DNA from: an uncultured Bacteroides sp.
GTDB lineage: Bacteria; Bacteroidota; Bacteroidia; Bacteroidales; GCA-2748055
Assembly: GCA_964458155.1 (NCBI GenBank)
Contig: CAYWGP010000171.1
Span: 11,073 to 75,072 of the forward strand
Length of the DNA stretch: 64,000 nt
Direction: 5' to 3'
Of this stretch, positions 38,580 through 56,766 are shown one piece after another; position 1 is the stretch's first letter; every line of letters starts with the position of its first letter. The position numbers were made by a program, and so were the translations under genes. Below the pieces are notes generated by a model. The model saw nothing but the letters and a program-made list of their open reading frames with translations, had not been told where the DNA came from and did no database searches.

Positions 38580-38651
38580 TCTATATATATAGGGTGTGAA
38601 TCTTTGAACAATAAACCGGACATAGATACTTTAGCATCAAACCAATTAGCT

Positions 38652-39782
38652 ATGAAAATGAAACTATCTAAATTAATGCTACTGGGTGCTGTTGCCCTTC
38701 TTATTGGAGGTGCAGTTATCCTGAGTAGTTGTGAAGGTCCGGAAGGACCTGCGGGTGCCAACGGAACTAACGGTGTTGACGGTGTTGACGGTGTAGACGG
38801 TCAGGACGGTCAGGATGCCAACTCTACCTGTATTCTGTGTCACAGTGATGATCAGGTGATCGTTGCCAAGACCAGGCAGTATAATAATTCTGCCCACAAC
38901 ACCGGTCATACTTCCGGGTATACGAACAGGTCATTTGGTCCCCTGTATAATTGTGCAGGATGTCATACCAGCCAGGGATTCCTGGATGAACTGGTAGGTG
39001 CAAGTAATGTTCCCTATGCTGATATTACCCAGCCAAACTGCTACACCTGTCACAACATCCATGACACCTATACTACGGACGACTGGGCTCTGACAAACGG
39101 CGATCCCACTGTACCCTTTACCAATGCTGCTTATCAAACAGCCGCTGTTGATCTGGGTAACGGTAATCAGTGTACTCAATGTCACCAGTTCTCAGCCTAT
39201 TATCTTGTTATTGATTCGCTTTGGGCGGACTTTGACCTGGGAACGTCGACTGTGACTTTCCCAGCTGATAACAGTCTTAAGCGTGCTGGTGTGCATCATG
39301 CTCCCCAGTACAACATTTTTGCTGGAATGGACCTCTTTGAGTTTACAGGTACAACTGCCTATCCAACCAGCAACCACGTTATGGCTCAGGCTCCTGACGG
39401 ATGTGTTACCTGCCATATGAATGATGGATTTGGTGACCTCACCGGACACTCCATGTCGATGACTTATGATTTCCATGGTCCTGATAATTTGCACTGGTCC
39501 TCCTCTTGTACAGAATGTCATGATGGCGAGGATGAGCTGGATGGCAAAGTTGAAGATATTCAAACTGACGTCCAACTGCTGCTGGATGACCTGGAAACGC
39601 TCTTGCTTGCATCCGGAGTAATGACTGCTGATTATTACATTGCTCCTGGAGTATGGACCACTGACTTAACAGCAGCCACAGTAAATTTCAATGCCATTCG
39701 TGAAGATAAGAGTATTGGATTCCACAACGTGGACTATGTTGAGGCAGTTCTCATGAATACCATTGCAGCTATTACTCCTTAA
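38652..39782 (+). CDS. Hexahaem c-type cytochrome lipoprotein with a collagen-like Gly-X-Y stalk
   Basis: ATG at 38652 gives MKMKLSKLMLLGAVALLIGGAVILSSC, a lipobox. Nine G-X-Y triplets follow, then six CxxCH motifs (CILCH, CAGCH, CYTCH, CTQCH, CVTCH, CTECH). Confidence 0.9.
   Translation: MKMKLSKLMLLGAVALLIGGAVILSSCEGPEGPAGANGTNGVDGVDGVDGQDGQDANSTCILCHSDDQVIVAKTRQYNNSAHNTGHTSGYTNRSFGPLYNCAGCHTSQGFLDELVGASNVPYADITQPNCYTCHNIHDTYTTDDWALTNGDPTVPFTNAAYQTAAVDLGNGNQCTQCHQFSAYYLVIDSLWADFDLGTSTVTFPADNSLKRAGVHHAPQYNIFAGMDLFEFTGTTAYPTSNHVMAQAPDGCVTCHMNDGFGDLTGHSMSMTYDFHGPDNLHWSSSCTECHDGEDELDGKVEDIQTDVQLLLDDLETLLLASGVMTADYYIAPGVWTTDLTAATVNFNAIREDKSIGFHNVDYVEAVLMNTIAAITP
38736..38816 (+). repeat. Collagen-like triplet run with 9-bp tandem DNA repeats
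   Basis: Encodes GPE-GPA-GAN-GTN-GVD-GVD-GVD-GQD-GQD. The DNA reads ggtgttgac ggtgttgac ggtgtagac ggtcaggac ggtcaggat. Confidence 0.9.
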
Positions 39783-39858: not shown

Positions 39859-40554
39859 TTAGCCTGTTTCGCTGATTTGTTTTATGCGCTTATAGTCGAT
39901 AACCTCAATGGATTTCCCATCCATCTTGATGAGGCCCTCGTCGTTAAACTCCTTCAGCATCCGGATGACCGTTTCGGGGCTCATGCCGGATAATTCGGCC
40001 AGCTCTTTCCTGGATAATGGCAGGTCAAATTCACAATTTTTAAAGATCCGGTCTGCCAGGCACAACAGGATGTCAGCAAGTCTGCCAAAAGCCTGCTTGT
40101 AAGTAAAGCAAAAGAACCTTCCGTATATCTGCAGACTGTTGGAGCTAAGAATATCAATAATTTCTTTTGTGAAATCAAAATTCTCCTTCATCAGGGTACG
40201 GAATGCTTTTACTTCTATTTGCCTGATCTCAGAGTCAATATAGGCCGTGGCAGAGTAGGGGAAATAGGCGTGCTCTTCCGAAACAGAAGAAAGCCCGAGA
40301 AAATTCCTGTCCGGCGTGATCCGCAGTATAAGGGAATTGCTTCCATTTTCCAGGAAAACCTTGGCTAGCCCCGATTCCATATATATTACATGAGATACAA
40401 AGCCGCCTTGTTTGCATATGACCTCTCCTTTCCTGTACTTAATTCTGACAGAGTTCTCATCCAGGAATTCCTTCTGCCCGGGAGTAAGATGCTCGAAGCA
40501 GCGGCACTCGTGGAAACTCAGGGTGCATGCAGAAAACTTTATTGACTCGTCCAT
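39859..40554 (-). CDS. Crp/Fnr-family transcriptional regulator with N-terminal Cys residues
   Basis: It has a cNMP-binding-like beta-roll and a C-terminal HTH (SRKELAELSGMSPETVIRMLKEF). ATG at 40554 is preferred because the GTG at 40575 overlaps a TATATTTG -7 box. The N-terminus reads MDESIKFSACTLSFHECRC. Confidence 0.85.
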   Translation of the reverse strand: MDESIKFSACTLSFHECRCFEHLTPGQKEFLDENSVRIKYRKGEVICKQGGFVSHVIYMESGLAKVFLENGSNSLILRITPDRNFLGLSSVSEEHAYFPYSATAYIDSEIRQIEVKAFRTLMKENFDFTKEIIDILSSNSLQIYGRFFCFTYKQAFGRLADILLCLADRIFKNCEFDLPLSRKELAELSGMSPETVIRMLKEFNDEGLIKMDGKSIEVIDYKRIKQISETG

Positions 40555-40574
40555 CCATCTATGCTTAGAGTTCA

Positions 40575-40582
40575 CAAATATA
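40575..40582 (-). promoter_or_regulatory. -7 promoter box (TATATTTG on the minus strand) for the FNR-like regulator
   Basis: Plus-strand CAAATATA lies 21 nt upstream of the ATG at 40554. Confidence 0.4.
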
Positions 40583-40644: not shown

Positions 40645-40785
40645 CTCGTCCATATTCCGGTGGAATTTCATACATAAATCCCCCTTTTATCAAAGATTAT
40701 GACGTTAGGCACACAATAATTTCGCTAGATTTACTTGCTGAGAACTAAATCATTACACAAGAGATATACCTTAGATTTTACAGGC

Positions 40786-42138
40786 ATGAGAAACTTAAAG
40801 AATGGTTCAGTACGGATTGTTTTCTTAATAATACTATTAAGCGCTGTGATTGGGTGCACTAATTACCAGATTCCAGGGAGTACTTCACCTGGACCAGAGG
40901 AAAACAATTGTGAGACGTGCCATACTGACTATGACCGCCTGGTAGAAGTATATACACCTGATACAGTGGCTCCTGTAAAGGGCTACGGTGTGGAGGCCCC
41001 TCAGTATGCGCCCTATGACCGGGTTTTTTTAGGAGGTAGCGGCTATGATTCTTATAAAGCATCGGGACACTACGCGGTAGGTTGTACAGGCTGTCATAAC
41101 GGCGATGGTGGTACCGGGGAGAAAGATCTTGCTCATACGGGGGATTTCATTTCCCATCCTTCCCAGTTCTATGAAGACAAATGCGCTGCCTGCCACCAGG
41201 ATATTACAAATGATTTTACAAGCAGTATTCATAATGGTACAGGTTTGAAACGTATGGTGGCTATGCGAAGCGGGCTAAGTGGGGCTTCCGAATTTGATCA
41301 GCTTCCACAGCATCAGATAGATGGCTACAATGATAATTGTGCAATATGTCACGGAGACTGTGGTAACTGTCATGTGGTCAGGCCACCCATGAGTGGTGGG
41401 GGATTGGCAGATGGTCATAATTTTAATAAAACACCCGATATGTCCAATGTCTGTCTGAGCTGTCATGCCGAAACTATAGGTCATGATTTCCAGGGTATCG
41501 ATCCGGCTACTGAGCCTGATATTCACCTGACTCTGAATGACTTTGATTGTCTTAGTTGTCATGACGGCCCTGAATTGCATGGGGATGGTCAGCCAGTGGA
41601 CCAGCGCTATGCTTACGCTGAGCTCCCCGAGTGTGAGAGTTGCCACACCGGAATAGAAACTGCAAATAACTTTCATACGGTACATATTGGCGATTTCAAT
41701 TGCCAGGTGTGCCATTCCCAGGACTTCAATAACTGTGGCAGCTGCCATATCGGAGGTGATGACGCCAGAATCCCTGCATATCTGGGTTTCAAGATCGCAG
41801 TCAATCCGCTACCCGATCTGATGGATTATTCATTTACTTTGGTCAGAAGAACAACGACTGCCCCGGATAACTGGGTAGAGTATGGTGTGGCTGAGTATGC
41901 AGACTTTGATGTGCATCCAACATATAACTATGCATCCCCCCATAACATTTTAAGGTTGACCGACCGGACTGATGTAGGAACAGAAAGTTGTAATTCTAAT
42001 TGCCACATCCGCAAGGAAGGGGAGACATACGTGAACAAAGAACTGTATCTGTTCCAGTCTGACCTGCTGGACTGGGAGATGGATGCAGATAGTGCTATCA
42101 TTGTTGATGGTAAGCTGCCCGACTACTGGATGAACTAA
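40786..42138 (+). CDS. Decahaem c-type cytochrome lipoprotein with an additional CX3CH motif, paralog 1
   Basis: ATG at 40786 gives MRNLKNGSVRIVFLIILLSAVIGC, a lipobox. There are ten CxxCH motifs plus C-terminal CNSNCH. Confidence 0.9.
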   Translation: MRNLKNGSVRIVFLIILLSAVIGCTNYQIPGSTSPGPEENNCETCHTDYDRLVEVYTPDTVAPVKGYGVEAPQYAPYDRVFLGGSGYDSYKASGHYAVGCTGCHNGDGGTGEKDLAHTGDFISHPSQFYEDKCAACHQDITNDFTSSIHNGTGLKRMVAMRSGLSGASEFDQLPQHQIDGYNDNCAICHGDCGNCHVVRPPMSGGGLADGHNFNKTPDMSNVCLSCHAETIGHDFQGIDPATEPDIHLTLNDFDCLSCHDGPELHGDGQPVDQRYAYAELPECESCHTGIETANNFHTVHIGDFNCQVCHSQDFNNCGSCHIGGDDARIPAYLGFKIAVNPLPDLMDYSFTLVRRTTTAPDNWVEYGVAEYADFDVHPTYNYASPHNILRLTDRTDVGTESCNSNCHIRKEGETYVNKELYLFQSDLLDWEMDADSAIIVDGKLPDYWMN

Positions 42139-42411: not shown

Positions 42412-43776
42412 ATGAGAAACACAAAGTTTTTTTCAGGGCTGGCCCTATTGTTGATGGTGTTTTTAATTGCCGGGATCGGGTGCACGAATTACCAGGTTCC
42501 GGGAAGCGGGAATAATGGAGAGATCTCTGCCAACTCCTGCGAGGGATGCCACACGGATTATGACCGTCTGGTTGCTGTGCATTCACCTGATACTGCTGCG
42601 CCGGTTGGAGGTTGTGGTGGAGAGGCTCCTCATTACGAGCCATACGACCGGGTTTATCTTGGTGGGACGGGATATGACTCTTTTAAAGCTTCCGGTCATT
42701 ACAGTGTTGGATGTACAGGATGCCATAATGGAAATGGGAAGACGGGTGATAAGAATGAGGCCCATTCGGGTGATTGGATTTCCTCACCCTCCCTTGATCA
42801 CCAGGAGAAATGTGTTACCTGTCATGAGAGTGTAAGCGATGGTTTTGTCACCAGTATTCACAATGGAACCGGACAGAAGCGAAAGGTAACCATGCGATCG
42901 GGATTGGCAGGACCGGAAGAATTTGATCAGCTGCCCGCACACCAGATAGATGGCTATAACCAGAAATGTTCGGTATGCCATGGTACCTGTGGAAATTGCC
43001 ACGTTGTACGCCCCGACATTGCCGGGGGAGGCTTATCCAATGGACATAATTTCAATAAGACCCCGGATTGGTACAATATATGTTCGGCCTGCCATGTATC
43101 CAGGGGTGCGCACGCATTCCTTGGTGTGAATCCGGAAACTGAACCTGACTTTCACAGAGATGAGTTAGATTTTACCTGCCTGACATGCCATGATGGTGTT
43201 GAGCTTCACGGTGACGGACAGCCGGTAGAGCAGCGTTATGCCTATACCGAGCTGCCCGAGTGTGAAGATTGTCATGAGGGACTGGAAAGGGAGAACAATT
43301 TTCACTCGATGCACTATGACGATTTTCAGTGTCAGATCTGCCACTCTCAGGATTATAACAACTGTGGCGAGTGCCACATTGCAGATGGCCATGCTGAATA
43401 TGGGCCATATATGGACTTTAAGATCGCCATGAACACAATTCCTGATATTAAGGAACATAAGTTAGCCCTGGTTCGCCGCACCCTTGCTTACCCCGATAAC
43501 TGGGTGGGCTTTGGAGAGGATCTTACATATGATAACTTTGAGGAGTTTCCAACCTATAATTATACCACTCCTCATAATATACTGGAGAGAACCACACGCA
43601 CAGATGTGGGTAGTGGAGCCTGTTATTCCAATTGCCACATACGCAATGAAGGTGGAACACTGATTAATTCAGAGTATTATCTCTGGAAAGACAGTCTGCT
43701 TACATGGGAACTGGAGGCCACTCAGGCTTATGCTGTGGACGGGCAATTGCCAGCCTCCTGGTTCGAAGAAAAATAG
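42412..43776 (+). CDS. Decahaem c-type cytochrome lipoprotein with an additional CX3CH motif, paralog 2
   Basis: Lipobox MVFLIAGIGC. All ten CxxCH motifs sit at the same relative spacing as in paralog 1. The C-terminus has CYSNCH. Confidence 0.9.
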   Translation: MRNTKFFSGLALLLMVFLIAGIGCTNYQVPGSGNNGEISANSCEGCHTDYDRLVAVHSPDTAAPVGGCGGEAPHYEPYDRVYLGGTGYDSFKASGHYSVGCTGCHNGNGKTGDKNEAHSGDWISSPSLDHQEKCVTCHESVSDGFVTSIHNGTGQKRKVTMRSGLAGPEEFDQLPAHQIDGYNQKCSVCHGTCGNCHVVRPDIAGGGLSNGHNFNKTPDWYNICSACHVSRGAHAFLGVNPETEPDFHRDELDFTCLTCHDGVELHGDGQPVEQRYAYTELPECEDCHEGLERENNFHSMHYDDFQCQICHSQDYNNCGECHIADGHAEYGPYMDFKIAMNTIPDIKEHKLALVRRTLAYPDNWVGFGEDLTYDNFEEFPTYNYTTPHNILERTTRTDVGSGACYSNCHIRNEGGTLINSEYYLWKDSLLTWELEATQAYAVDGQLPASWFEEK

Positions 43777-45077: not shown

Positions 45078-45605
45078 ATGTTGACAAAACGAATATTCAC
45101 TTTAGCCTTGATGGTCTTCTTTGCAGGGAGTGCACTGATGGCCCAGAATTTCAAGTACATTGGAGCAGCAAAATGTAAAATGTGTCATGTGAAGCCCGCT
45201 ACAGGTGAACAGTACAATATTTGGTTAAAAGGTCCCCATGCAGGAGCCATGAAAACCCTGGCCGGTGATGAAGCAAAGAAAATTGCCACTGAAAAGGGAA
45301 TTGCTGATCCCACAACGGATGCAGCCTGTATCAGCTGTCACGCTACTGTTGCCGGTGTTGATGCCAAACTAATTGCCAGTGCAAAAATGGATGAGGGTGT
45401 TTCCTGCGAAACCTGCCACGGACCAGGAAGCATGTACAAGGGAGCTTCGGTTATGAAGAACCGTGATCTGGCCCTAACAAAAGGAATGATAATTCCTACG
45501 GAGGAGACATGTACAGCCTGTCACAATGAAAAGAGTCCTACCTTTAAGGGCTTTAATTACACTGAGATGTTAGCTAAGATTGCTCATCCCAATCCTGCAA
45601 AATAA
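45078..45605 (+). CDS. Tetrahaem c-type cytochrome (cytochrome c554-like small multihaem protein), secreted
   Basis: 175 aa with a Sec signal peptide (AGSALMAQN) and four CxxCH motifs (CKMCH, CISCH, CETCH, CTACH). Confidence 0.88.
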   Translation: MLTKRIFTLALMVFFAGSALMAQNFKYIGAAKCKMCHVKPATGEQYNIWLKGPHAGAMKTLAGDEAKKIATEKGIADPTTDAACISCHATVAGVDAKLIASAKMDEGVSCETCHGPGSMYKGASVMKNRDLALTKGMIIPTEETCTACHNEKSPTFKGFNYTEMLAKIAHPNPAK

Positions 45606-46389: not shown

Positions 46390-46482
46390 TCCGGGGAGGA
46401 AGCCTATAATTATTTGAAAAAGAGCCCGGCTTGCGAGCTCAACAGCGTTAATTTCAGCGACGAGCGGGAAGCCTAACACAGA

Positions 46483-46510
46483 AGAGGCCGTATCTTAGGA
46501 TACGGCCTCT
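46483..46510. terminator. Bidirectional terminator between convergent genes
   Basis: AGAGGCCGTATC-ttag-GATACGGCCTCT, a perfect 12-bp stem. Confidence 0.75.
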
Positions 46511-46533
46511 TACTTTTGTGCAATTATACCTTC

Positions 46534-49335
46534 TTAATGTACTCCTCCTGCAATGAGAGTGTAAACAATAGCTATGATCAGGAGGATCCCAATGATCAGT
46601 GCCGTAAATCCCAGGATTCTAATCATGCGCATGTAATCTTTGGAGAATTCTTTCGCATGGACTCGTTGATCCAGCTTTCCGGCCTCTTTTAATTCCTCGT
46701 ATTCCCGGGGACGTTCATGTTTGAAGTGTTCAAGGGGCATATATCCCGTAAATATTACGGTATCCATGGGGAAAGCTTCCGGCCTGAAATGTGTATTGAA
46801 GAAGTGGATGGTGAAAATAAATCCAACCGCCAGCAGCGCTTCATCACTGTGAATGATCTGGCTTATATTGATGAGCCATCCCGGGAAGAAACGGGTGAAG
46901 AATACCGGGAACCACAGTACAAGGCCGCTGAATCCGATTACTGCAACCCCCCAGAAGACAGCAATGTAGTCAAACTTCTCCCAGTAGGTCCATCTGCCAT
47001 AATAAGGCCTGGGACCTTTTCCAAGGAACCATTTTATAGTGGCAACGAAATCCCTTATATCCTGCTTGTTGAACCAGAGAGTGTCTTTGCCAAAAATAAA
47101 TTTGGTCATGGAAAGCCTTTTCCTCCTTTTCTCCCGAATCAGGTTAAAAATGTGGAAGGCGAAATAGCCAAAGGTGATTACAGCACCAATGCGATGTAGC
47201 ACGCCGGCAGTTTGGACACCTCCAAAGAACCTGGACAGAAACTTTGCCCAATCCATATGGGCAAACTTCAGCATCATTCCGGTCACGGCCAGAAGGATGA
47301 AACTAATAATTACGAAAATATGCGTGATCCGTTGGTTCTTGCTGAAGCGTTTATAGTAGAGATTCCCGGTTTCTTTGGGTCCTTCTTTCCTCTTTTTCCG
47401 TCTTTCTTTTACAGATCTGGGCAACCACATCAGGAGGTGAATTCCGAAGAAAGTAAATACACCCAGCAAAAGTGCGGTCATAAAGATATATGCATAATGC
47501 AATTTTGGATCATCTTTATGAGTGGCATGGCTCAAATAACCAGTAAAACGTTTGTTTGCTCCCTCATGGCAGCTTCCACAGGTTGTCACCAGGTTTTCTT
47601 CAGAGACCATGGATGCCGGGTTATTGGCCTTCAGGATATTGTGCGCACCATGACAATCGGAACACCTGGCGCTTTCATAGTAGCCCAGCTGATAGGCTTT
47701 GCCATGATAAGTTTGCATGTACGTTTTTGCCGTTTCCTCATGACAGGATCCACACTGGTGAGTAACTTCATTCATAAATTTATCCTGTCCAACAGTAGAA
47801 ATCTCATGTGCACTGTGACATTTAACGCAGGTGGGATACTCAGTACCCTGGGGGTCGGTTCTGTAGGCATGGTCGCTTTCCAGGTAGGTCTCATAGATTC
47901 CTTGATGACAGACCCCGCAGGTCGTCTGAACATTTGCAGGATGTACCGAAGAGCGTTCATCCTCCATTTTCAGCTCCATGTGGGAGGTGTGGCAGTCGGT
48001 ACATACAGCACTTACCGTTAATCCTTTGCCTGTGAGCCCCATGCCATGGACACTGGAGGAATAATCAGCCAAAGCATTGGTCTCAAGGATACCCTCCACC
48101 TCGGCTGCTAAGCCGTCCTCTCGGTGACATTCTCCGCACAATTGGGGGATTGCCATTCTGTAAACAGGGGAGGTGTCGTCGTATTTGGATTTAGTTGCAT
48201 GTGTCCCGTGACAATCGGTGCAGTAAGGGGCGTTTGCCTGATTATTATAATACGCCTGGCCATGCCCGCTTTCAAAGTACATACCAGAGATCTCGGCATG
48301 GCAGGATGAGCAGTCCACCGGCTGGTTGGTGGAGCAGGGGCGTTGCAGATGATCGGTAACCTGAGTATGACAATCGGTACACTGGATATTCTTGTGTACT
48401 GAATTGGGGAGCTCACGATTATCCCGGAATAAGGAAACAGTATCCCCCCCGACTATCTTATGCAAATTTTCATCCTGGTGGCACTTCATACATGCCTGGT
48501 CAGATATCCTGGCCTGAATCTTGGGTACGTCCACAATATGGGGCGGGTGACAGGAAGAACAGGCTGGAATGATACTTGGATTCTTCTCCCACAGCTCGCC
48601 CTTGATTACCTTTTTATGGGCTTCCTCAATTCTTGTGTGACATTTCATGCAGGTACCGGCAATCCTGTTTGTGGAAATGGAGGAATTGGGACTGGTATGA
48701 GGAAGCACCAGGTGGTTGCCGTGACAGTCGTTGCAGGTGGCAGTTACTACCAGTCCGGCTTCAAATAAGCCCTGGCCATGAATACCCTGGGTATAGTTCT
48801 CCACGATATTGTGTTCAGATACATCATATACCCTGGCCACAACCTCGCCCTCTTTGTGGCATCTTCCACAGAGGTAGGGAATATTCATCTTATAGGTGCG
48901 GGATGCTGTATTGCTGTTATGCAGGATATCGTGGTGACCGTGGCACTCCTTGCAGCTGGGAGCATTGGAATCATTACTTAAGAGAGCCTGTCCATGGACA
49001 CCTCTTACATTATTTTCCATCTCAACAGTATGGCAGCTTCCGCAATTGACCGGTTTCAGATCATCGGCATGGGGAAAACCTTCATCGGCAGCATCGGAAT
49101 GACAGGAGATACAGGTGTTGCTGTGGTGAACCGAGTGTGCAAAGATGGAGGTATCCACAAACATGGACACGGTCCTGCCATGGAGTAAACCGGTCAGTGA
49201 GCGGTCCTCATGGCACATCATACAATCCTCATCGGCCTGTGCAGTTACCAGGCCTGAAAACGAGCCTGCTACTATGAACAGAATGAACCAGAATGCCCTG
49301 GTTCTGGAGAGTGAAAACAAGTAATTATTGGTCAT
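46534..49335 (-). CDS. 19-haem c-type cytochrome fused to an integral-membrane cytochrome-b-like domain (CbcL-like quinol:cytochrome module)
   Basis: 933 aa with a signal peptide and 19 CxxCH motifs in aa 38-590, many of the paired form CxxCHGxH. From about aa 611 there are 5-6 TM helices with conserved His ([32 protein letters not shown]). Confidence 0.9.
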
Positions 49336-49745
49336 TTTTCAGGGTGTTCAGTTAGACGGGTAAAATAGTGATTATTAAATATTAAACACCTAATATCAAG
49401 GATATTGGGCGCAATTTATATCTAATCTGAATATAGATCAACTCCCTATTCGTGTTCTTCGTGGTAGCCGTTGATCATACTCATAAATAGAGTTCCAGAT
49501 TTGTCATCCAAAGTACAGGTATATTCTATTTTTTCCCATGTCAGCTTTTTTTTGTTTTCGAATACGCAAAAAGGAATGGAAGGCGATTACCAGCAGGGTT
49601 CCTCCAAATACAAGCAGACTGAGCCGGTTAAGCCACACGTTGTGATTTTCTTGAGCTTAAGAGTTTCATCCTGCTGGGCAGAGAGGGTGCTTGCAAGGGT
49701 CAGCAGGAGATTTATCAGCAAACCTGTTTGGGTGTTTCATTAATC

Positions 49746-50579
49746 TTAGAACCTGATTGTGATGTTAAAACCAAAGCGGAAATCACCATCCCAGGGATCA
49801 TTGCTGTTAAATGCAATACTCTGATTCCTCACAATGTAGTCGTAGGTGGATGCGAAAACCCTGAATGAGTGGGTGCTGGTTCCGATCTCCACACCAAAGG
49901 CCAGGTTTGGATATACATCTGTATCAGCATCAATCAGAGGCTGCTCATATTCAAGTATGATGGAAGAAAAGCCCAGTACCTGAAAACGCGCTCCTGCATT
50001 GATGGAAGCATTTATATTGTTATATCCTTCCGGCACCGCGTTGAACCATACAAAAGTAGGTAATACCTGTAAACTGATCTTTTCTCCGACCCTGCTGGAT
50101 ATAATCAGCTCATTGAGATAGGACATGCGGTAGGCAAACTTGTAATCCTCTTCAGGTCCGAAGTATTTCTGGTCACGTGCATCCAGGACTGCATTACCAT
50201 GGTAGGACAGGGAAATAGGCAAGCTACTGTTCTGGGTCAGAATGGCATATTTCCACTCCAGGTCCTGAAGCATGTCTTTCCGGGTGGTACCAAAACCCAC
50301 CATAAGCTTGTCGGTAATTCCGTAGCTGATTCCAATCCGGGTATTGGCACTTCCATAGATCCCGTACAGGTCGTTAATCTCTTCGATCTGGGAGAAACGG
50401 TGCTGGATTTCCAGCATGAATTGTCCCTTGTAAGGGCTTGCAGTGGTCTGGGCATCTACCAGAGTCAGTGTCTCAAAAGCCGGCATTACCGGAGTGGGCT
50501 CATCCTGGGCAAATAAAAGCCCTGAGCTTAAGAATGCAATAATACAGGTAGTGGCGCTTAGTTTTGTATATCGTCTCAT
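49746..50579 (-). CDS. Small outer-membrane beta-barrel protein (DUF5777-like as I recall the family)
   Basis: 277 aa with signal peptide LLFAQDE, alternating amphipathic strands, and C-terminal ...GFNITIRF ending in Phe. Confidence 0.7.
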   Translation of the reverse strand: MRRYTKLSATTCIIAFLSSGLLFAQDEPTPVMPAFETLTLVDAQTTASPYKGQFMLEIQHRFSQIEEINDLYGIYGSANTRIGISYGITDKLMVGFGTTRKDMLQDLEWKYAILTQNSSLPISLSYHGNAVLDARDQKYFGPEEDYKFAYRMSYLNELIISSRVGEKISLQVLPTFVWFNAVPEGYNNINASINAGARFQVLGFSSIILEYEQPLIDADTDVYPNLAFGVEIGTSTHSFRVFASTYDYIVRNQSIAFNSNDPWDGDFRFGFNITIRF

Positions 50580-50599
50580 AGCTATTGGTTATTTTAATA

Positions 50600-50959
50600 T
50601 CAGTTGTCCTCGGCTCCTTCGTCGATCCAGCCAAGGATTGTTAATAAGTCATCTTCAGTTACCCGGTCGGCATGGGAGCCGGTTAGAATTTCATACAGAT
50701 AGCTGGAGCAGGGAAAATCAACGTCCACATAATCACCATCTATCAATTCATCGTATGACCAGTCAGGACTCAGGTCGGGATTCTGACCTCCGCTGTGACA
50801 GCTTACGCAATTCTGATCAAATATGGGCTGAACATCGTTGGCATAACTTACGCCGGTTGGCAGATCGTCCGGACAGGGCGGTTCCGGGATCTCATATTGC
50901 GTACAGGATGACAGAATCATCAGCACAGATCCTGTCAGTATCAACATCATTCTTCTCAT
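50600..50959 (-). CDS. Monohaem cytochrome-c-like lipoprotein
   Basis: 119 aa with lipobox MILSSC and a single CVSCH in a VQPIFDQNCVSCHSGG context, similar to planctomycete-type cytochrome c domains. Confidence 0.75.
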   Translation of the reverse strand: MRRMMLILTGSVLMILSSCTQYEIPEPPCPDDLPTGVSYANDVQPIFDQNCVSCHSGGQNPDLSPDWSYDELIDGDYVDVDFPCSSYLYEILTGSHADRVTEDDLLTILGWIDEGAEDN

Positions 50960-51157: not shown

Positions 51158-51853
51158 ATGAAAACTGATAAAAATTGTATAGGATGCGATGAGTGTAACA
51201 GCAGGTCTCCCTTGTTTGCTTCGCTGACTTCTGAAGAGCTGAAATTGTTGAACGCAGATCGCTATTCCGTTCGCTTTCATAAAGGTGAAACCATAATCAA
51301 ACAGGGAACCCGGGCGGAGAATCTGGTCTCCCTGATCGAAGGGCTTGTAAAAATTTTTGTGGAAGGTGATTATAACAAGAACCTGGTGCTGGATTTTATC
51401 AAACCACCCAGGTTGGTGGGAGGTCCGGGAGCACAACTGGAAGGAAAGCACAGGTACACCATTGTGGCCATCAGAGAGACCCTGGTATGCTTTCTTGACC
51501 TGGGCAACTTTAAGAAAGTTCTGGCCTCCAATAGCACATTCTCCGAACAGTTTCTGATTCACTGCTCCAGGAATTATCTTTCCACCCTGGACCGTATGGT
51601 TGCTGTCACCCAGAAGCAGATGCATGGCAGAATGGCCGATGCCTTGATCTACCTTAGCAAGGAACTTTATGAAGATCAGGTCATTGGTGAAGAAATAAGC
51701 AGAATGGATATGGCAGAGTACACCTGTATGTCGAAAGACAGCGCGATTCGTGTGCTTAAAGAGTTTGAAAGGGATCATATAGTCAGCCTTCATGGGAAAC
51801 AGATCGAGGTCCTGGACTCCGAAAGGCTCCATGAAATAGCTGACAAAGGTTAA
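51158..51853 (+). CDS. Crp/Fnr-family transcriptional regulator with an N-terminal CxxCxxC cluster (FNR-like)
   Basis: 231 aa. It starts MKTDKNCIGCDECNS, followed by a cNMP-binding-like fold and an HTH (SRMDMAEYTCMSKDSAIRVLKEF). Confidence 0.88.
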   Translation: MKTDKNCIGCDECNSRSPLFASLTSEELKLLNADRYSVRFHKGETIIKQGTRAENLVSLIEGLVKIFVEGDYNKNLVLDFIKPPRLVGGPGAQLEGKHRYTIVAIRETLVCFLDLGNFKKVLASNSTFSEQFLIHCSRNYLSTLDRMVAVTQKQMHGRMADALIYLSKELYEDQVIGEEISRMDMAEYTCMSKDSAIRVLKEFERDHIVSLHGKQIEVLDSERLHEIADKG

Positions 51854-55329: not shown

Positions 55330-56766
55330 ATGAAAGCTATTCCACTGTTACTCGTTCCTTTTTTTATGGCAGCCTGTAGCCTGCCTAAGACTGATAGAAG
55401 TGACAATGACGATTCTGATCCGCGTGCCAGGGAGATCTACGATCAGTATTGTTCCAATTGTCATGGCAAAGATCTTCGTGGGGGTAATGCCCAGAGTCTG
55501 CTGGACGGCGTATGGCAATTTGGAGATGGAACCGGGTATGTAAGCAGGAACATAAAATATGGCATCCCTCATCTTGGTATGCCTTCTTATGAAAACTCTC
55601 TGGATAACGAGGAAATCAGAGCGCTGGTTGACTATCTGTACAGGGAACAGGAGCTTGCCGGGGTTGAGAAACCGGATCCGCCTGCACTTCTTGAAAGCAT
55701 AGATTATAGCATTGGATGTGAAATCTGGGTGGACAATCTTGATATTCCCTGGGCCCTTGTTTTTCTAAACAAGGATACAGCACTGTTTACTGAAAGGCCC
55801 GGGAAACTGAGAATGTTAGTGAAGGGGGAGCTGATCCATGATCCGGTGAATGGCATCCCAGAGGTCCTGGCAGAGGGGCAGGGAGGGTTGATGGATGTGA
55901 ATATTGATCCGGCTTACAGGGAGAATGGATGGATCTATCTCTCGTACAGTCACCAGATTGAACCGGCACAGGGAGAAGAGAGAACCCCGTCTATGACCCG
56001 CATCGTAAGGGGCAGGGTCCGGGATATGGAATGGCTTGATGAACAGCTGGTCTATGAAGCACCGCCCGAATCATACAGGACAACCAGGCACCATTATGGA
56101 AACCGGATTGTTTTTGACCGGAAAGGTTACCTGTATTTTAGTATTGGCGATCGGGGAGCACAGGATCAGGCCCAGGATGCAACAAAGCCAAATGGCAAGA
56201 TTCACAGGATCTACCCCGACGGGAGCATTCCTGATGATAATCCATTCATAAACAATGGTCTACCTACCTTATATACATTGGGAAACAGGAATCCACAGGG
56301 CATTTCAGTTCATCCTTTCAGCGATGAGGTCTGGGCAGCGGAGCATGGGCCGCTGGGGGGGGACGAATTGAATCTGATTGGCTCAGGGATTAATTACGGA
56401 TGGCCGCTTATTACCTATGGCAGCAACTACGATGGTGTCCCTGTTTCAGAGTTCACCCGAATGGAAGGATATGCCCAGCCGGCACTTTACTGGAAACCAT
56501 CTATTGCAGTTTGCGGGATTGAATTCTACCAGGGTGAAGCATTTCCCCTGTGGAAGAATAAATTACTGGTGGGTGCCCTGAAGTATGAAGAGGTCAGGTT
56601 GCTTGATATTGAAGCTGACAGGGTCCTTCACCAGGAGATTATCTTCAAGAATTATGGAAGAGTCAGGGATATCGGCCTGGATCCGGAAGGGAACATTTAT
56701 GTGGTAGTGAATAAGCCTGACCGGATCATTAGATTAACACCACAGGGTGAGCGGACAGGACAGTAA
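55330..56766 (+). CDS. Cytochrome c domain fused to a PQQ-dependent sugar dehydrogenase (sorbosone dehydrogenase-like beta-propeller)
   Basis: Lipobox FFMAAC, one CSNCH motif, then a propeller region (GGLMDV, HHYGNRIVF, GDRG, GNRNPQG, NYGWP). Confidence 0.85.
   Translation: MKAIPLLLVPFFMAACSLPKTDRSDNDDSDPRAREIYDQYCSNCHGKDLRGGNAQSLLDGVWQFGDGTGYVSRNIKYGIPHLGMPSYENSLDNEEIRALVDYLYREQELAGVEKPDPPALLESIDYSIGCEIWVDNLDIPWALVFLNKDTALFTERPGKLRMLVKGELIHDPVNGIPEVLAEGQGGLMDVNIDPAYRENGWIYLSYSHQIEPAQGEERTPSMTRIVRGRVRDMEWLDEQLVYEAPPESYRTTRHHYGNRIVFDRKGYLYFSIGDRGAQDQAQDATKPNGKIHRIYPDGSIPDDNPFINNGLPTLYTLGNRNPQGISVHPFSDEVWAAEHGPLGGDELNLIGSGINYGWPLITYGSNYDGVPVSEFTRMEGYAQPALYWKPSIAVCGIEFYQGEAFPLWKNKLLVGALKYEEVRLLDIEADRVLHQEIIFKNYGRVRDIGLDPEGNIYVVVNKPDRIIRLTPQGERTGQ

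Follow-up and report, generated by a model that had tools for sequence, protein, structure and literature searches.

A predicted 19-haem cytochrome c/dihaem cytochrome b fusion of the CbcL/MtrH/MtoC family encoded in a cytochrome island of an uncultured Bacteroides sp.

In a 64,000-nucleotide stretch of DNA from an uncultured Bacteroides sp. (contig CAYWGP010000171.1 of assembly GCA_964458155.1; hereafter, the window), a gene at 46534-49335 on the minus strand encodes a 933-residue protein in which a c-type cytochrome with 19 CxxCH motifs is fused to a polytopic membrane domain predicted to hold two b haems. Judged from its sequence, this protein is a further member of a published and widespread 19-haem clade within the CbcL/MtrH/MtoC family of inner-membrane proteins. 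Most likely, it oxidizes menaquinol and would pass the electrons outward through the b haems and the c-haem chain. The parts of the gene referred to below are as follows.

46534..49335, minus strand: multihaem c/dihaem b fusion gene (list of open reading frames and translation; stop codon at 46534-46536)
49237..49335, minus strand: N-terminal signal peptide, residues 1-33 (hydropathy scan and sequence; core at 14-32, ...TAQA before DEDC)
48514..49245, minus strand: eight-haem module 1, residues 31-274, haems 1-8 (CxxCH positions, ungapped alignment with module 2)
47782..48513, minus strand: eight-haem module 2, residues 275-518, haems 9-16 (old duplicate of module 1, displaced by +244 residues)
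47506..47781, minus strand: membrane-proximal three-haem unit, residues 519-610, haems 17-19, spacing 30/28 (CxxCH positions and alignment)
46537..47505, minus strand: six-helix membrane domain, residues 611-933 (AlphaFold2 helices, hydropathy, Lys/Arg in loops, His conservation)
46681..47373, minus strand: FdnI-like four-helix dihaem b core, residues 655-885, helices 2-5 (PF01292, NCBIfam, profile and Foldseek)

The gene is complete, with 933 open codons, and we infer a cleavage site for the signal peptide from the sequence around its end. In a motif scan of the translation, the first Cys of a CxxCH motif lies at residues 38, 75, 98, 128, 156, 201, 229 and 259 in module 1, at residues 282, 319, 342, 372, 400, 445, 473 and 503 in module 2 and at residues 528, 558 and 586 in the membrane-proximal unit, giving 19 motifs in the protein; every one of these positions agrees with those listed in a first-pass annotation of this DNA. 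The motifs account for 38 of the 39 Cys residues. The sole Cys outside a motif, Cys334 (48334-48336), is invariant in 44 homologues and sits one residue past the module-2 equivalent of the invariant His89 of module 1.

The first-pass annotation had described the two eight-haem modules as an exact 244-residue duplication. This is correct for the register, because motifs 9-16 reproduce motifs 1-8 at +244 residues with no indel, but not for the sequence: residues 31-274 and 275-518 align ungapped over 235 residues with 35% identity (E 4e-50), the underlying DNA is 46% identical in register, and blastn of module against module gave no long match. Because the modules have diverged to this extent in protein and DNA, we conclude that the duplication is old and did not arise during assembly. 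In 84 of 109 19-haem homologues (58-100% identity), every one of the eight motif pairs retains the +244 offset, supporting that the register is conserved across the clade and that selection keeps both modules equally long. Moreover, module 1 is 51% identical (247 bits) to the orthologous module 1 of a 19-haem protein from Candidatus Hydrogenedentota and only 35% identical (152 bits) to its own module 2; because it is nearer to the former than to the latter, the duplication must be older than the spread of the clade over phyla.

The last three motifs had been read as a third, partial module. Residues 528-591 indeed match haems 3-5 of module 1 without gaps (36% identity, E 9e-15), yet they are not a leftover of the same duplication. 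Specifically, 62 of 90 complete representatives, three-haem proteins included, end in a 30/28 spacing, and the triad thus represents a core common to most of the family rather than a remnant. The layout is therefore best read, on sequence grounds, as a conserved membrane-proximal three-haem unit to which eight-haem modules were added N-terminally, from 3 to 11 (8+3) to 19 (8+8+3) haems. A 22-haem member of the family has an independent origin, being built from a duplicated 11-haem unit.

In the haem domain, 18 His residues outside the motifs are invariant among the 44 homologues and four more are nearly invariant; probably, most or all of the c haems have bis-His ligation. A full-length family profile searched against the PDB matched only 28pb_A (a 278-aa cytochrome c, E 1.3e-5) and FdnI, and reached no structure of MtrA, NrfB, OmcS or HmcA. 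Two other affiliations of the haem domain were considered and rejected. A likeness to hydroxylamine oxidoreductase (Foldseek E 0.2-2) is non-significant and stems from a low-confidence model, and the match to the MtrA/DmsE decahaem family (TIGR03508) scored 69.7 bits vs a cut-off of 192.2, reflecting local haem-packing motifs only; moreover, the window encodes no MtrB-like porin.

From about residue 611 onward, the protein becomes a polytopic membrane domain, as the first-pass annotation had proposed: the AlphaFold2 model (built with 44 homologues; mean predicted local distance difference test score, pLDDT, 62.6) has six helices at approximately 610-637, 666-690, 707-733, 784-808, 826-849 and 899-929 (pLDDT 70-84), and the loops follow the positive-inside rule. 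Specifically, Lys and Arg make up 12 of 31 residues between helices 1 and 2 and 15 of 56 between helices 3 and 4, while the loops between helices 2 and 3 and between helices 4 and 5 are short. Because the loops rich in Lys and Arg are those of helices 1-2 and 3-4, the haem domain is placed in the periplasm and the FdnI-like core is oriented as in FdnI.

Three lines of evidence agree with the earlier suggestion that this domain is of the FdnI/HydC/PhsC type. First, PF01292 (Ni_hydr_CYTB) scored 34.5 bits, above its gathering score of 30.1. Second, a profile of 19 diverse membrane domains matched FdnI (1KQF_C) in the PDB with an E value of 5.6e-13; the profile was required, because a search of the PDB with the single membrane-domain sequence gave no match. 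Third, 1KQF_C was the sole significant Foldseek match in the PDB (E 4.5e-4, probability 1.0, template modelling score normalized to the target 0.68). NCBIfam FdnI models also aligned with residues 662-885 at 1e-9, far under their equivalog cut-offs (15-36 bits for the FdnI/HydC models vs cut-offs of 116-341), so that the protein falls outside these equivalogs. An identification as a formate dehydrogenase gamma or hydrogenase b equivalog was likewise rejected in view of the c-haem fusion, the six helices and the absence of dehydrogenase genes nearby.

In the profile alignment, His18, His57, His155 and His169 of FdnI, which are reported to be its haem b ligands (Jormakka et al. 2002), correspond to His672, His714, His829 and His844. 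The b-haem interpretation depends on these pairs being conserved, and among 34 relatives down to ~30% identity they are, at 94-100%: His714 and His829 are present in 100%, His844 in 97% and His672 in 94%. In the same set, His603 is conserved in 97%, His633, which sits in the extra first helix, in 94%, His849 in 88% and His728 in 50%, the last being conserved in the close clade only. Based on this pattern, we propose that His714 and His829 would ligate the periplasmic-side haem b and His672 and His844 the cytoplasmic-side haem b. His633 and His849 may line the quinone site or may permit alternative haem ligation, a possibility on which Joshi et al. 2021 (bioRxiv 10.1101/2021.04.15.440034) have speculated.

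The CbcL/MtrH/MtoC family was defined by Zhong & Shi 2018 (PMC6295460) as proteins of 416-1034 aa with 3-23 CxxCH motifs and mostly six transmembrane segments, found in 15 phyla and with five members from Bacteroidetes. The 933-aa protein shares the family traits, namely an exported multi-CxxCH N-terminus, six helices, HydC/FdnI-type homology and a five-His pattern with His633, His672 and His714 in helices 1-3, one each, and His829 and His844 in helix 5. In CbcL, which combines a nine-haem c-type domain with a dihaem b domain of six helices, the His residues are likewise distributed one each over helices 1-3 with two in helix 5 (Joshi et al. 2021, bioRxiv 10.1101/2021.04.15.440034). Representatives with CbcL-like nine-haem spacing matched the membrane domain with E values of 1e-62 to 1e-85, and those with CbcL-like and MtrH-like spacing taken together with E values of 1e-59 to 1e-85.

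The first-pass annotation had implied that a 19-haem version of CbcL would be new. It is not: Table S2 of Zhong & Shi 2018 (PMC6295460) already contains a dozen or so proteins of ~910-950 aa whose 19 motifs have the same spacing, from Bacteroidetes/Marinilabiliales/Marinifilaceae/Salinivirgaceae, Ignavibacteria, Gemmatimonadetes, Handelsmanbacteria and Syntrophaceae, among them Marinilabiliales PLX02355.1 (932 aa), Marinifilaceae bacterium SPP2 BAX79136.1 (932 aa) and Bacteroidetes HGW-4 PKP08298.1 (913 aa). Compared by tabulated length and motif positions, these proteins are orthologues of the 933-aa protein and not identical to it; they are about equally long, with six predicted transmembrane segments at equivalent positions, and in PLX02355.1, with motifs at 96...586, the last 15 positions are those of the 933-aa protein. 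The 19-haem proteins are listed in that work without a description of the 8+8+3 modules. Our literature searches on 19-haem b/c fusions and on extracellular electron transfer in Prolixibacteraceae found nothing relevant.

Four known systems frame the comparison. Geobacter sulfurreducens CbcL (GSU0274, 619 aa) resembles the 933-aa protein in joining a periplasmic multihaem c domain to a six-helix dihaem b domain of the HydC/FdnI type and in its role as the inner-membrane link from menaquinol to periplasmic cytochromes, which has been shown genetically and for Geobacter only; CbcL is required below about -0.1 V (Zhong & Shi 2018, PMC6295460; Joshi et al. 2021, bioRxiv 10.1101/2021.04.15.440034). 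The published descriptions thus bear out the first-pass account of CbcL as a protein with nine c haems, a dihaem b domain and a low-potential role. CbcL differs in that its nine haems lie at 34-257 with an end spacing of 43/28 rather than 30/28, in lacking the two eight-haem modules and in belonging to a separate clade, the proxy representatives of which are ~37-48% identical in the membrane domain. MtoC/MtrH of Dechloromonas, Gallionella and Rhodoferax, for which roles in both reduction and Fe(II) oxidation have been proposed (Zhong & Shi 2018, PMC6295460), share the family, the membrane domain and the spacing of the last three haems (25/30/28) with the 933-aa protein; unlike it, they have nine haems, and their genes lie in mtoAB/mtrAB porin-cytochrome clusters. 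Escherichia coli FdnI, the gamma subunit of formate dehydrogenase-N (1KQF chain C), has the same four-helix dihaem b fold, four axial His residues and cytoplasmic C-terminal tail, but it is a stand-alone 217-aa subunit fed by an Fe-S subunit, carries no c-haem fusion, has no counterpart of helices 1 and 6 and is only ~19% identical in sequence. Finally, Geobacter CbcBA would do the same overall job with a dihaem b quinone module and a multihaem c-type cytochrome, but as separate subunits and with a four-helix b subunit that has no sequence homology to the membrane domain of CbcL (Joshi et al. 2021, bioRxiv 10.1101/2021.04.15.440034).

The 19-haem form is widely distributed. A protein identical to the 933-aa sequence is present in Joint Genome Institute data (P0001), and full-length homologues fall into at least 120 clusters, those scored being 58-85% identical. 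In a whole-library search with the membrane domain, 2473 representative clusters were retrieved at E <= 1e-3, with N-terminal parts carrying 0-22 CxxCH motifs. A scan of species-representative genomes yielded at least 597 loci with relatives of the membrane domain; of the 80 best, which were examined, 73 have complete open reading frames and 65 of these 73 contain exactly 19 motifs. The 19-haem carriers span at least 12 phylum-level groups, comprising Bacteroidota, Calditrichota, Chlorobiota, Latescibacterota, Aminicenantes, Krumholzibacteriia, Eisenbacteria, Acidobacteriota, Planctomycetota, Gemmatimonadota, Myxococcota, Omnitrophota and others, and include the cultured Mangrovibacterium lignilyticum and Maribellus sp. 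YY47; Marinifilaceae SPP2, listed in Table S2 of Zhong & Shi 2018, is a further cultured carrier. Because 65 of 73 loci from many phyla encode 19 motifs, we conclude that the 19-haem form is a large, old clade and not a rarity. We note that one Bacteroidia metagenome-assembled genome (MAG; L006) encodes a second CbcL-type fusion of 796 aa (multihaem c and PF01292; 14946-17336, minus strand) 4 kb from its 19-haem gene, indicating that several length variants are possible in one genome.

The gene lies in a cytochrome island at 38.6-51.9 kb of the window. Consistent with the assigned lineage, the window encodes a protein with a type IX secretion tail, and the closest homologues of the 933-aa protein come from Bacteroidales MAGs. 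The neighbouring features are the following.

38604-39782, plus strand: hexahaem cytochrome gene, at the island edge
39859-40575, minus strand: second CRP/FNR regulator, at the island edge
40735-42138, plus strand: decahaem lipoprotein 1, 467 aa (PF22113, MtrC/MtrF domain II/IV, above cut-off)
42412-43776, plus strand: decahaem lipoprotein 2, 454 aa (PF22113 below cut-off)
45078..45605, plus strand: tetrahaem cytochrome c554 homologue, 175 aa (PF13435; PDB 1BVB, E 2.4e-10)
46482..46511, no strand assigned: hairpin with a perfect 13-bp stem, between the genes for a 232-aa lipoprotein and the 933-aa protein (consensus scan only)
49746..50579, minus strand: DUF5777 outer-membrane beta-barrel, 277 aa (PF19089, E 1e-60; C-terminal ...ITIRF signal)
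50600..50959, minus strand: monohaem lipoprotein cytochrome c, 119 aa (one CxxCH, lipoprotein-type signal), first gene of the same-strand cluster
51158..51853, plus strand: divergent CRP/FNR-family regulator (Cys7-x2-Cys10-x2-Cys13 and Cys111)

The two regulators bracket the island, and the arrangement of Cys7, Cys10, Cys13 and Cys111 in the divergent one is reminiscent of the ligands of the FNR iron-sulfur cluster. The tandem decahaem lipoproteins, 60.5% identical to each other and represented by a single copy in close relatives, are candidate surface cytochromes. The c554 homologue, whose match 1BVB is cytochrome c554 of Nitrosomonas, is a candidate periplasmic carrier and is encoded near the 19-haem gene in 28 of the 80 loci. 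The island also encodes a rhodanese lipoprotein and the 232-aa lipoprotein, which has no assigned function. The 933-aa gene is convergent with the preceding island genes, that of the 232-aa lipoprotein included, and the hairpin between the two is likely a bidirectional terminator; a sigma-70 promoter scan returned hits at chance level with a consensus that is unsuited to Bacteroidota.

The DUF5777 gene lies upstream of the 933-aa gene on the same strand. Its model (pLDDT 55.7, ~12 strands) matches generic barrels of 12-16 strands only; within 6 kb of the 19-haem gene, a DUF5777 gene occurs in 21 of the 80 loci, 20 times upstream on the same strand and once on the opposite strand, and a literature search found no paper mentioning DUF5777. 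As a side observation, the monohaem lipoprotein and DUF5777 (49746-50959) resemble a split Cyc2-like cytochrome-porin, a speculation by parts list alone. In relatives with 60-85% identity, the recurring gene order is FNR-type regulator, monohaem cytochrome c, DUF5777, the CbcA/B-like pair described below, and the 933-aa-type gene, with c554 downstream; in other lineages, the 19-haem gene stands beside genes for NHL-repeat proteins and other multihaem cytochromes, or alone. Outside the island, the window encodes at 55330-56766 (plus strand) a pyrroloquinoline quinone-type glucose/sorbosone dehydrogenase with a fused N-terminal cytochrome c, which is syntenic with the island in two relatives (L001 and L091).

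In close relatives, a seven-haem, C-terminally anchored cytochrome and a 207-aa PhsC-like cytochrome b are encoded between DUF5777 and the large gene. This CbcBA-like pair is intact in L001 (8293-9889) and L088 (4350-5946), and CbcBA pairs have been noted in Prolixibacter, Marinilabiliales and Labilibaculum (Joshi et al. 2021, bioRxiv 10.1101/2021.04.15.440034). In the window, only scars of the pair are left in the 410-bp gap (49336-49745) between the DUF5777 and 933-aa genes.

49449..49739, minus strand: scars of the CbcA-like seven-haem and CbcB/PhsC-like cytochrome b genes (tblastn and blastn vs L001 and L088)
Within 49336-49745: scar 1, the first ~30 codons of the CbcA-like gene, frame-shifted
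49543-49647: scar 2, the C-terminal anchor of the CbcA-like protein
49449-49523: scar 3, the last 25 codons of the cytochrome b gene

Between 54000 and exactly 49651, the window shares 99-99.5% identity with three independent assemblies (L088, L089 and L090), all of which have the intact pair; past 49651, identity falls to 81-92%. This sharp switch points either to a recombinant strain without the pair or to a chimeric metagenome join. The internal deletion of the cytochrome b gene is probably real, because it lies fully inside the divergent segment. The switch at 49651 is outside the 933-aa open reading frame, which is unaffected.

The observations above on architecture, homology, fold, His conservation, topology, distribution and synteny lead us to infer as follows which haems are bound, where the quinone site lies, which way electrons flow and which partners take part. 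After Sec export and haem attachment, ~575 residues with 19 c haems would reside in the periplasm, and the three-haem unit would lead into the six-helix domain, in which helices 2-5 would form the FdnI-type bundle around two b haems. By analogy with FdnI, the menaquinone site would lie beside the cytoplasmic-side haem. Menaquinol oxidized there would deliver electrons to the two b haems and on to the c-haem chain, from which they could pass to periplasmic carriers such as the c554-type tetrahaem protein and then to outer-membrane and surface parts, for which the monohaem lipoprotein, DUF5777 barrel and MtrC-like decahaem lipoproteins are candidates. The outcome would be an anaerobically induced outlet for electrons to extracellular or low-potential acceptors. 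By dissipating membrane potential, flow in this direction would aid the reduction of low-potential acceptors, an argument that has been made for CbcL and CbcBA (bioRxiv 10.1101/2021.04.15.440034).

Several points weigh against this reading. The haem domain of the AlphaFold2 model has a pLDDT of ~30-65 and was modelled without cofactors, and the geometry of the chain is not readable from it. The assignment to the CbcL/MtrH/MtoC family is supported through proxy representatives and the published description rather than a direct alignment with GSU0274; cluster look-ups returned no named Geobacter sequence among the representatives, and the genome scan gave closer relatives only. The 19-haem clade has no biochemically studied member. 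DUF5777 is a generic barrel of ~12 strands that accompanies the gene in Bacteroidota and Chlorobiota only, and because of this restriction it is not an obligatory partner. As to direction, the family includes MtoC of Fe(II) oxidizers, and the published comparison identified no sequence feature that distinguishes one direction from the other (Zhong & Shi 2018, PMC6295460).

The inclusion of MtoC and the lack of a distinguishing feature also fit a reverse flow, in which the protein would act as an MtoC-like quinone reductase. An extracellular or periplasmic donor, for example Fe(II), reduced sulfur or a partner cell, would then supply electrons for reducing menaquinone on the cytoplasmic side, generating a proton-motive force via a redox loop as in FdnI. 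FdnI, whose fold and His pattern the membrane domain shares, is a quinone reductase, the gene adjoins a homologue of c554, which in nitrifiers carries electrons towards the quinone pool, and a rhodanese lipoprotein is encoded nearby. However, the host belongs to a Bacteroidales/Prolixibacteraceae lineage, and Bacteroidales and Prolixibacteraceae are known mainly as anaerobic heterotrophs. Moreover, the regulators are of the FNR type, a rhodanese is found near the gene in only 2 of the 80 loci, and CbcBA-like genes are paired with the cluster in relatives; cbcBA has been proposed as a marker for outward electron transfer in Bacteroidetes (bioRxiv 10.1101/2021.04.15.440034). On balance, we regard reverse flow as unlikely, although it is the main alternative.

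We also considered that the protein could be the electron-entry module for periplasmic respiration of a soluble substrate, for example a sulfur compound processed by the nearby rhodanese and decahaem proteins, rather than a part of extracellular electron transfer. The rhodanese lipoprotein that adjoins the cytochromes would fit such a role, as would a weak likeness of the decahaem proteins to the octahaem tetrathionate reductase family (E 3e-4 to 2e-3, far below cut-off) and the CbcB-like neighbour in relatives, which scores as a PhsC-like thiosulfate reductase cytochrome b (189 bits). Yet no molybdopterin, sirohaem or other catalytic subunit is encoded in the island, the rhodanese is not conserved past the closest relatives, the 19-haem protein is found in many differing contexts, and the neighbouring lipoprotein of the 5'-nucleotidase family is not the sulfur-oxidation protein SoxB, scoring 52.7 bits vs a cut-off of 550. 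Such a role therefore seems very improbable. That the duplication was made by assembly, that the gene is a pseudogene or that the membrane domain is haem-free is hardly credible, since, even if the identity break at 49651 just upstream could mean that the contig is partly mosaic or a chimeric join, this break lies outside the open reading frame, the modules are only 46% identical in DNA, none of the 19 motifs or His ligands is damaged and all are conserved, and independent assemblies contain the same protein and hundreds of full-length homologues.

Returning to menaquinol oxidation with outward flow, a further and rather doubtful extension, which takes up the long periplasmic wire envisaged in the first-pass annotation, is that the 19 haems form one extended chain that would cross most of the periplasm and wire the menaquinone pool to an outer-membrane module without a diffusible carrier. 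The 10 haems of MtrA span ~8 nm, and by analogy the extended chain would measure ~15-18 nm. The outer-membrane module in this arrangement may be the monohaem lipoprotein together with the DUF5777 barrel, and the family may tune its reach by gain and loss of eight-haem modules (3, 11, 19 and 22-23 haems).

The window thus adds one more intact member to a very widespread CbcL-type 19-haem clade, and the discovery is modest because the architecture was already published. The modular series of 3, 11, 19 and 22-23 haems constitutes a natural experiment in wire length, and the existence of cultured carriers means that one can test how the chain is arranged, which way electrons run and what the fifth His does. 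If the extended chain is true, a single protein of this clade would bridge the periplasm from the quinone pool outward, and this would explain how minerals, electrodes or partner cells exchange electrons with many non-model anaerobes, among them Bacteroidota, Calditrichota, Ignavibacteria, Acidobacteriota, Planctomycetota and others.

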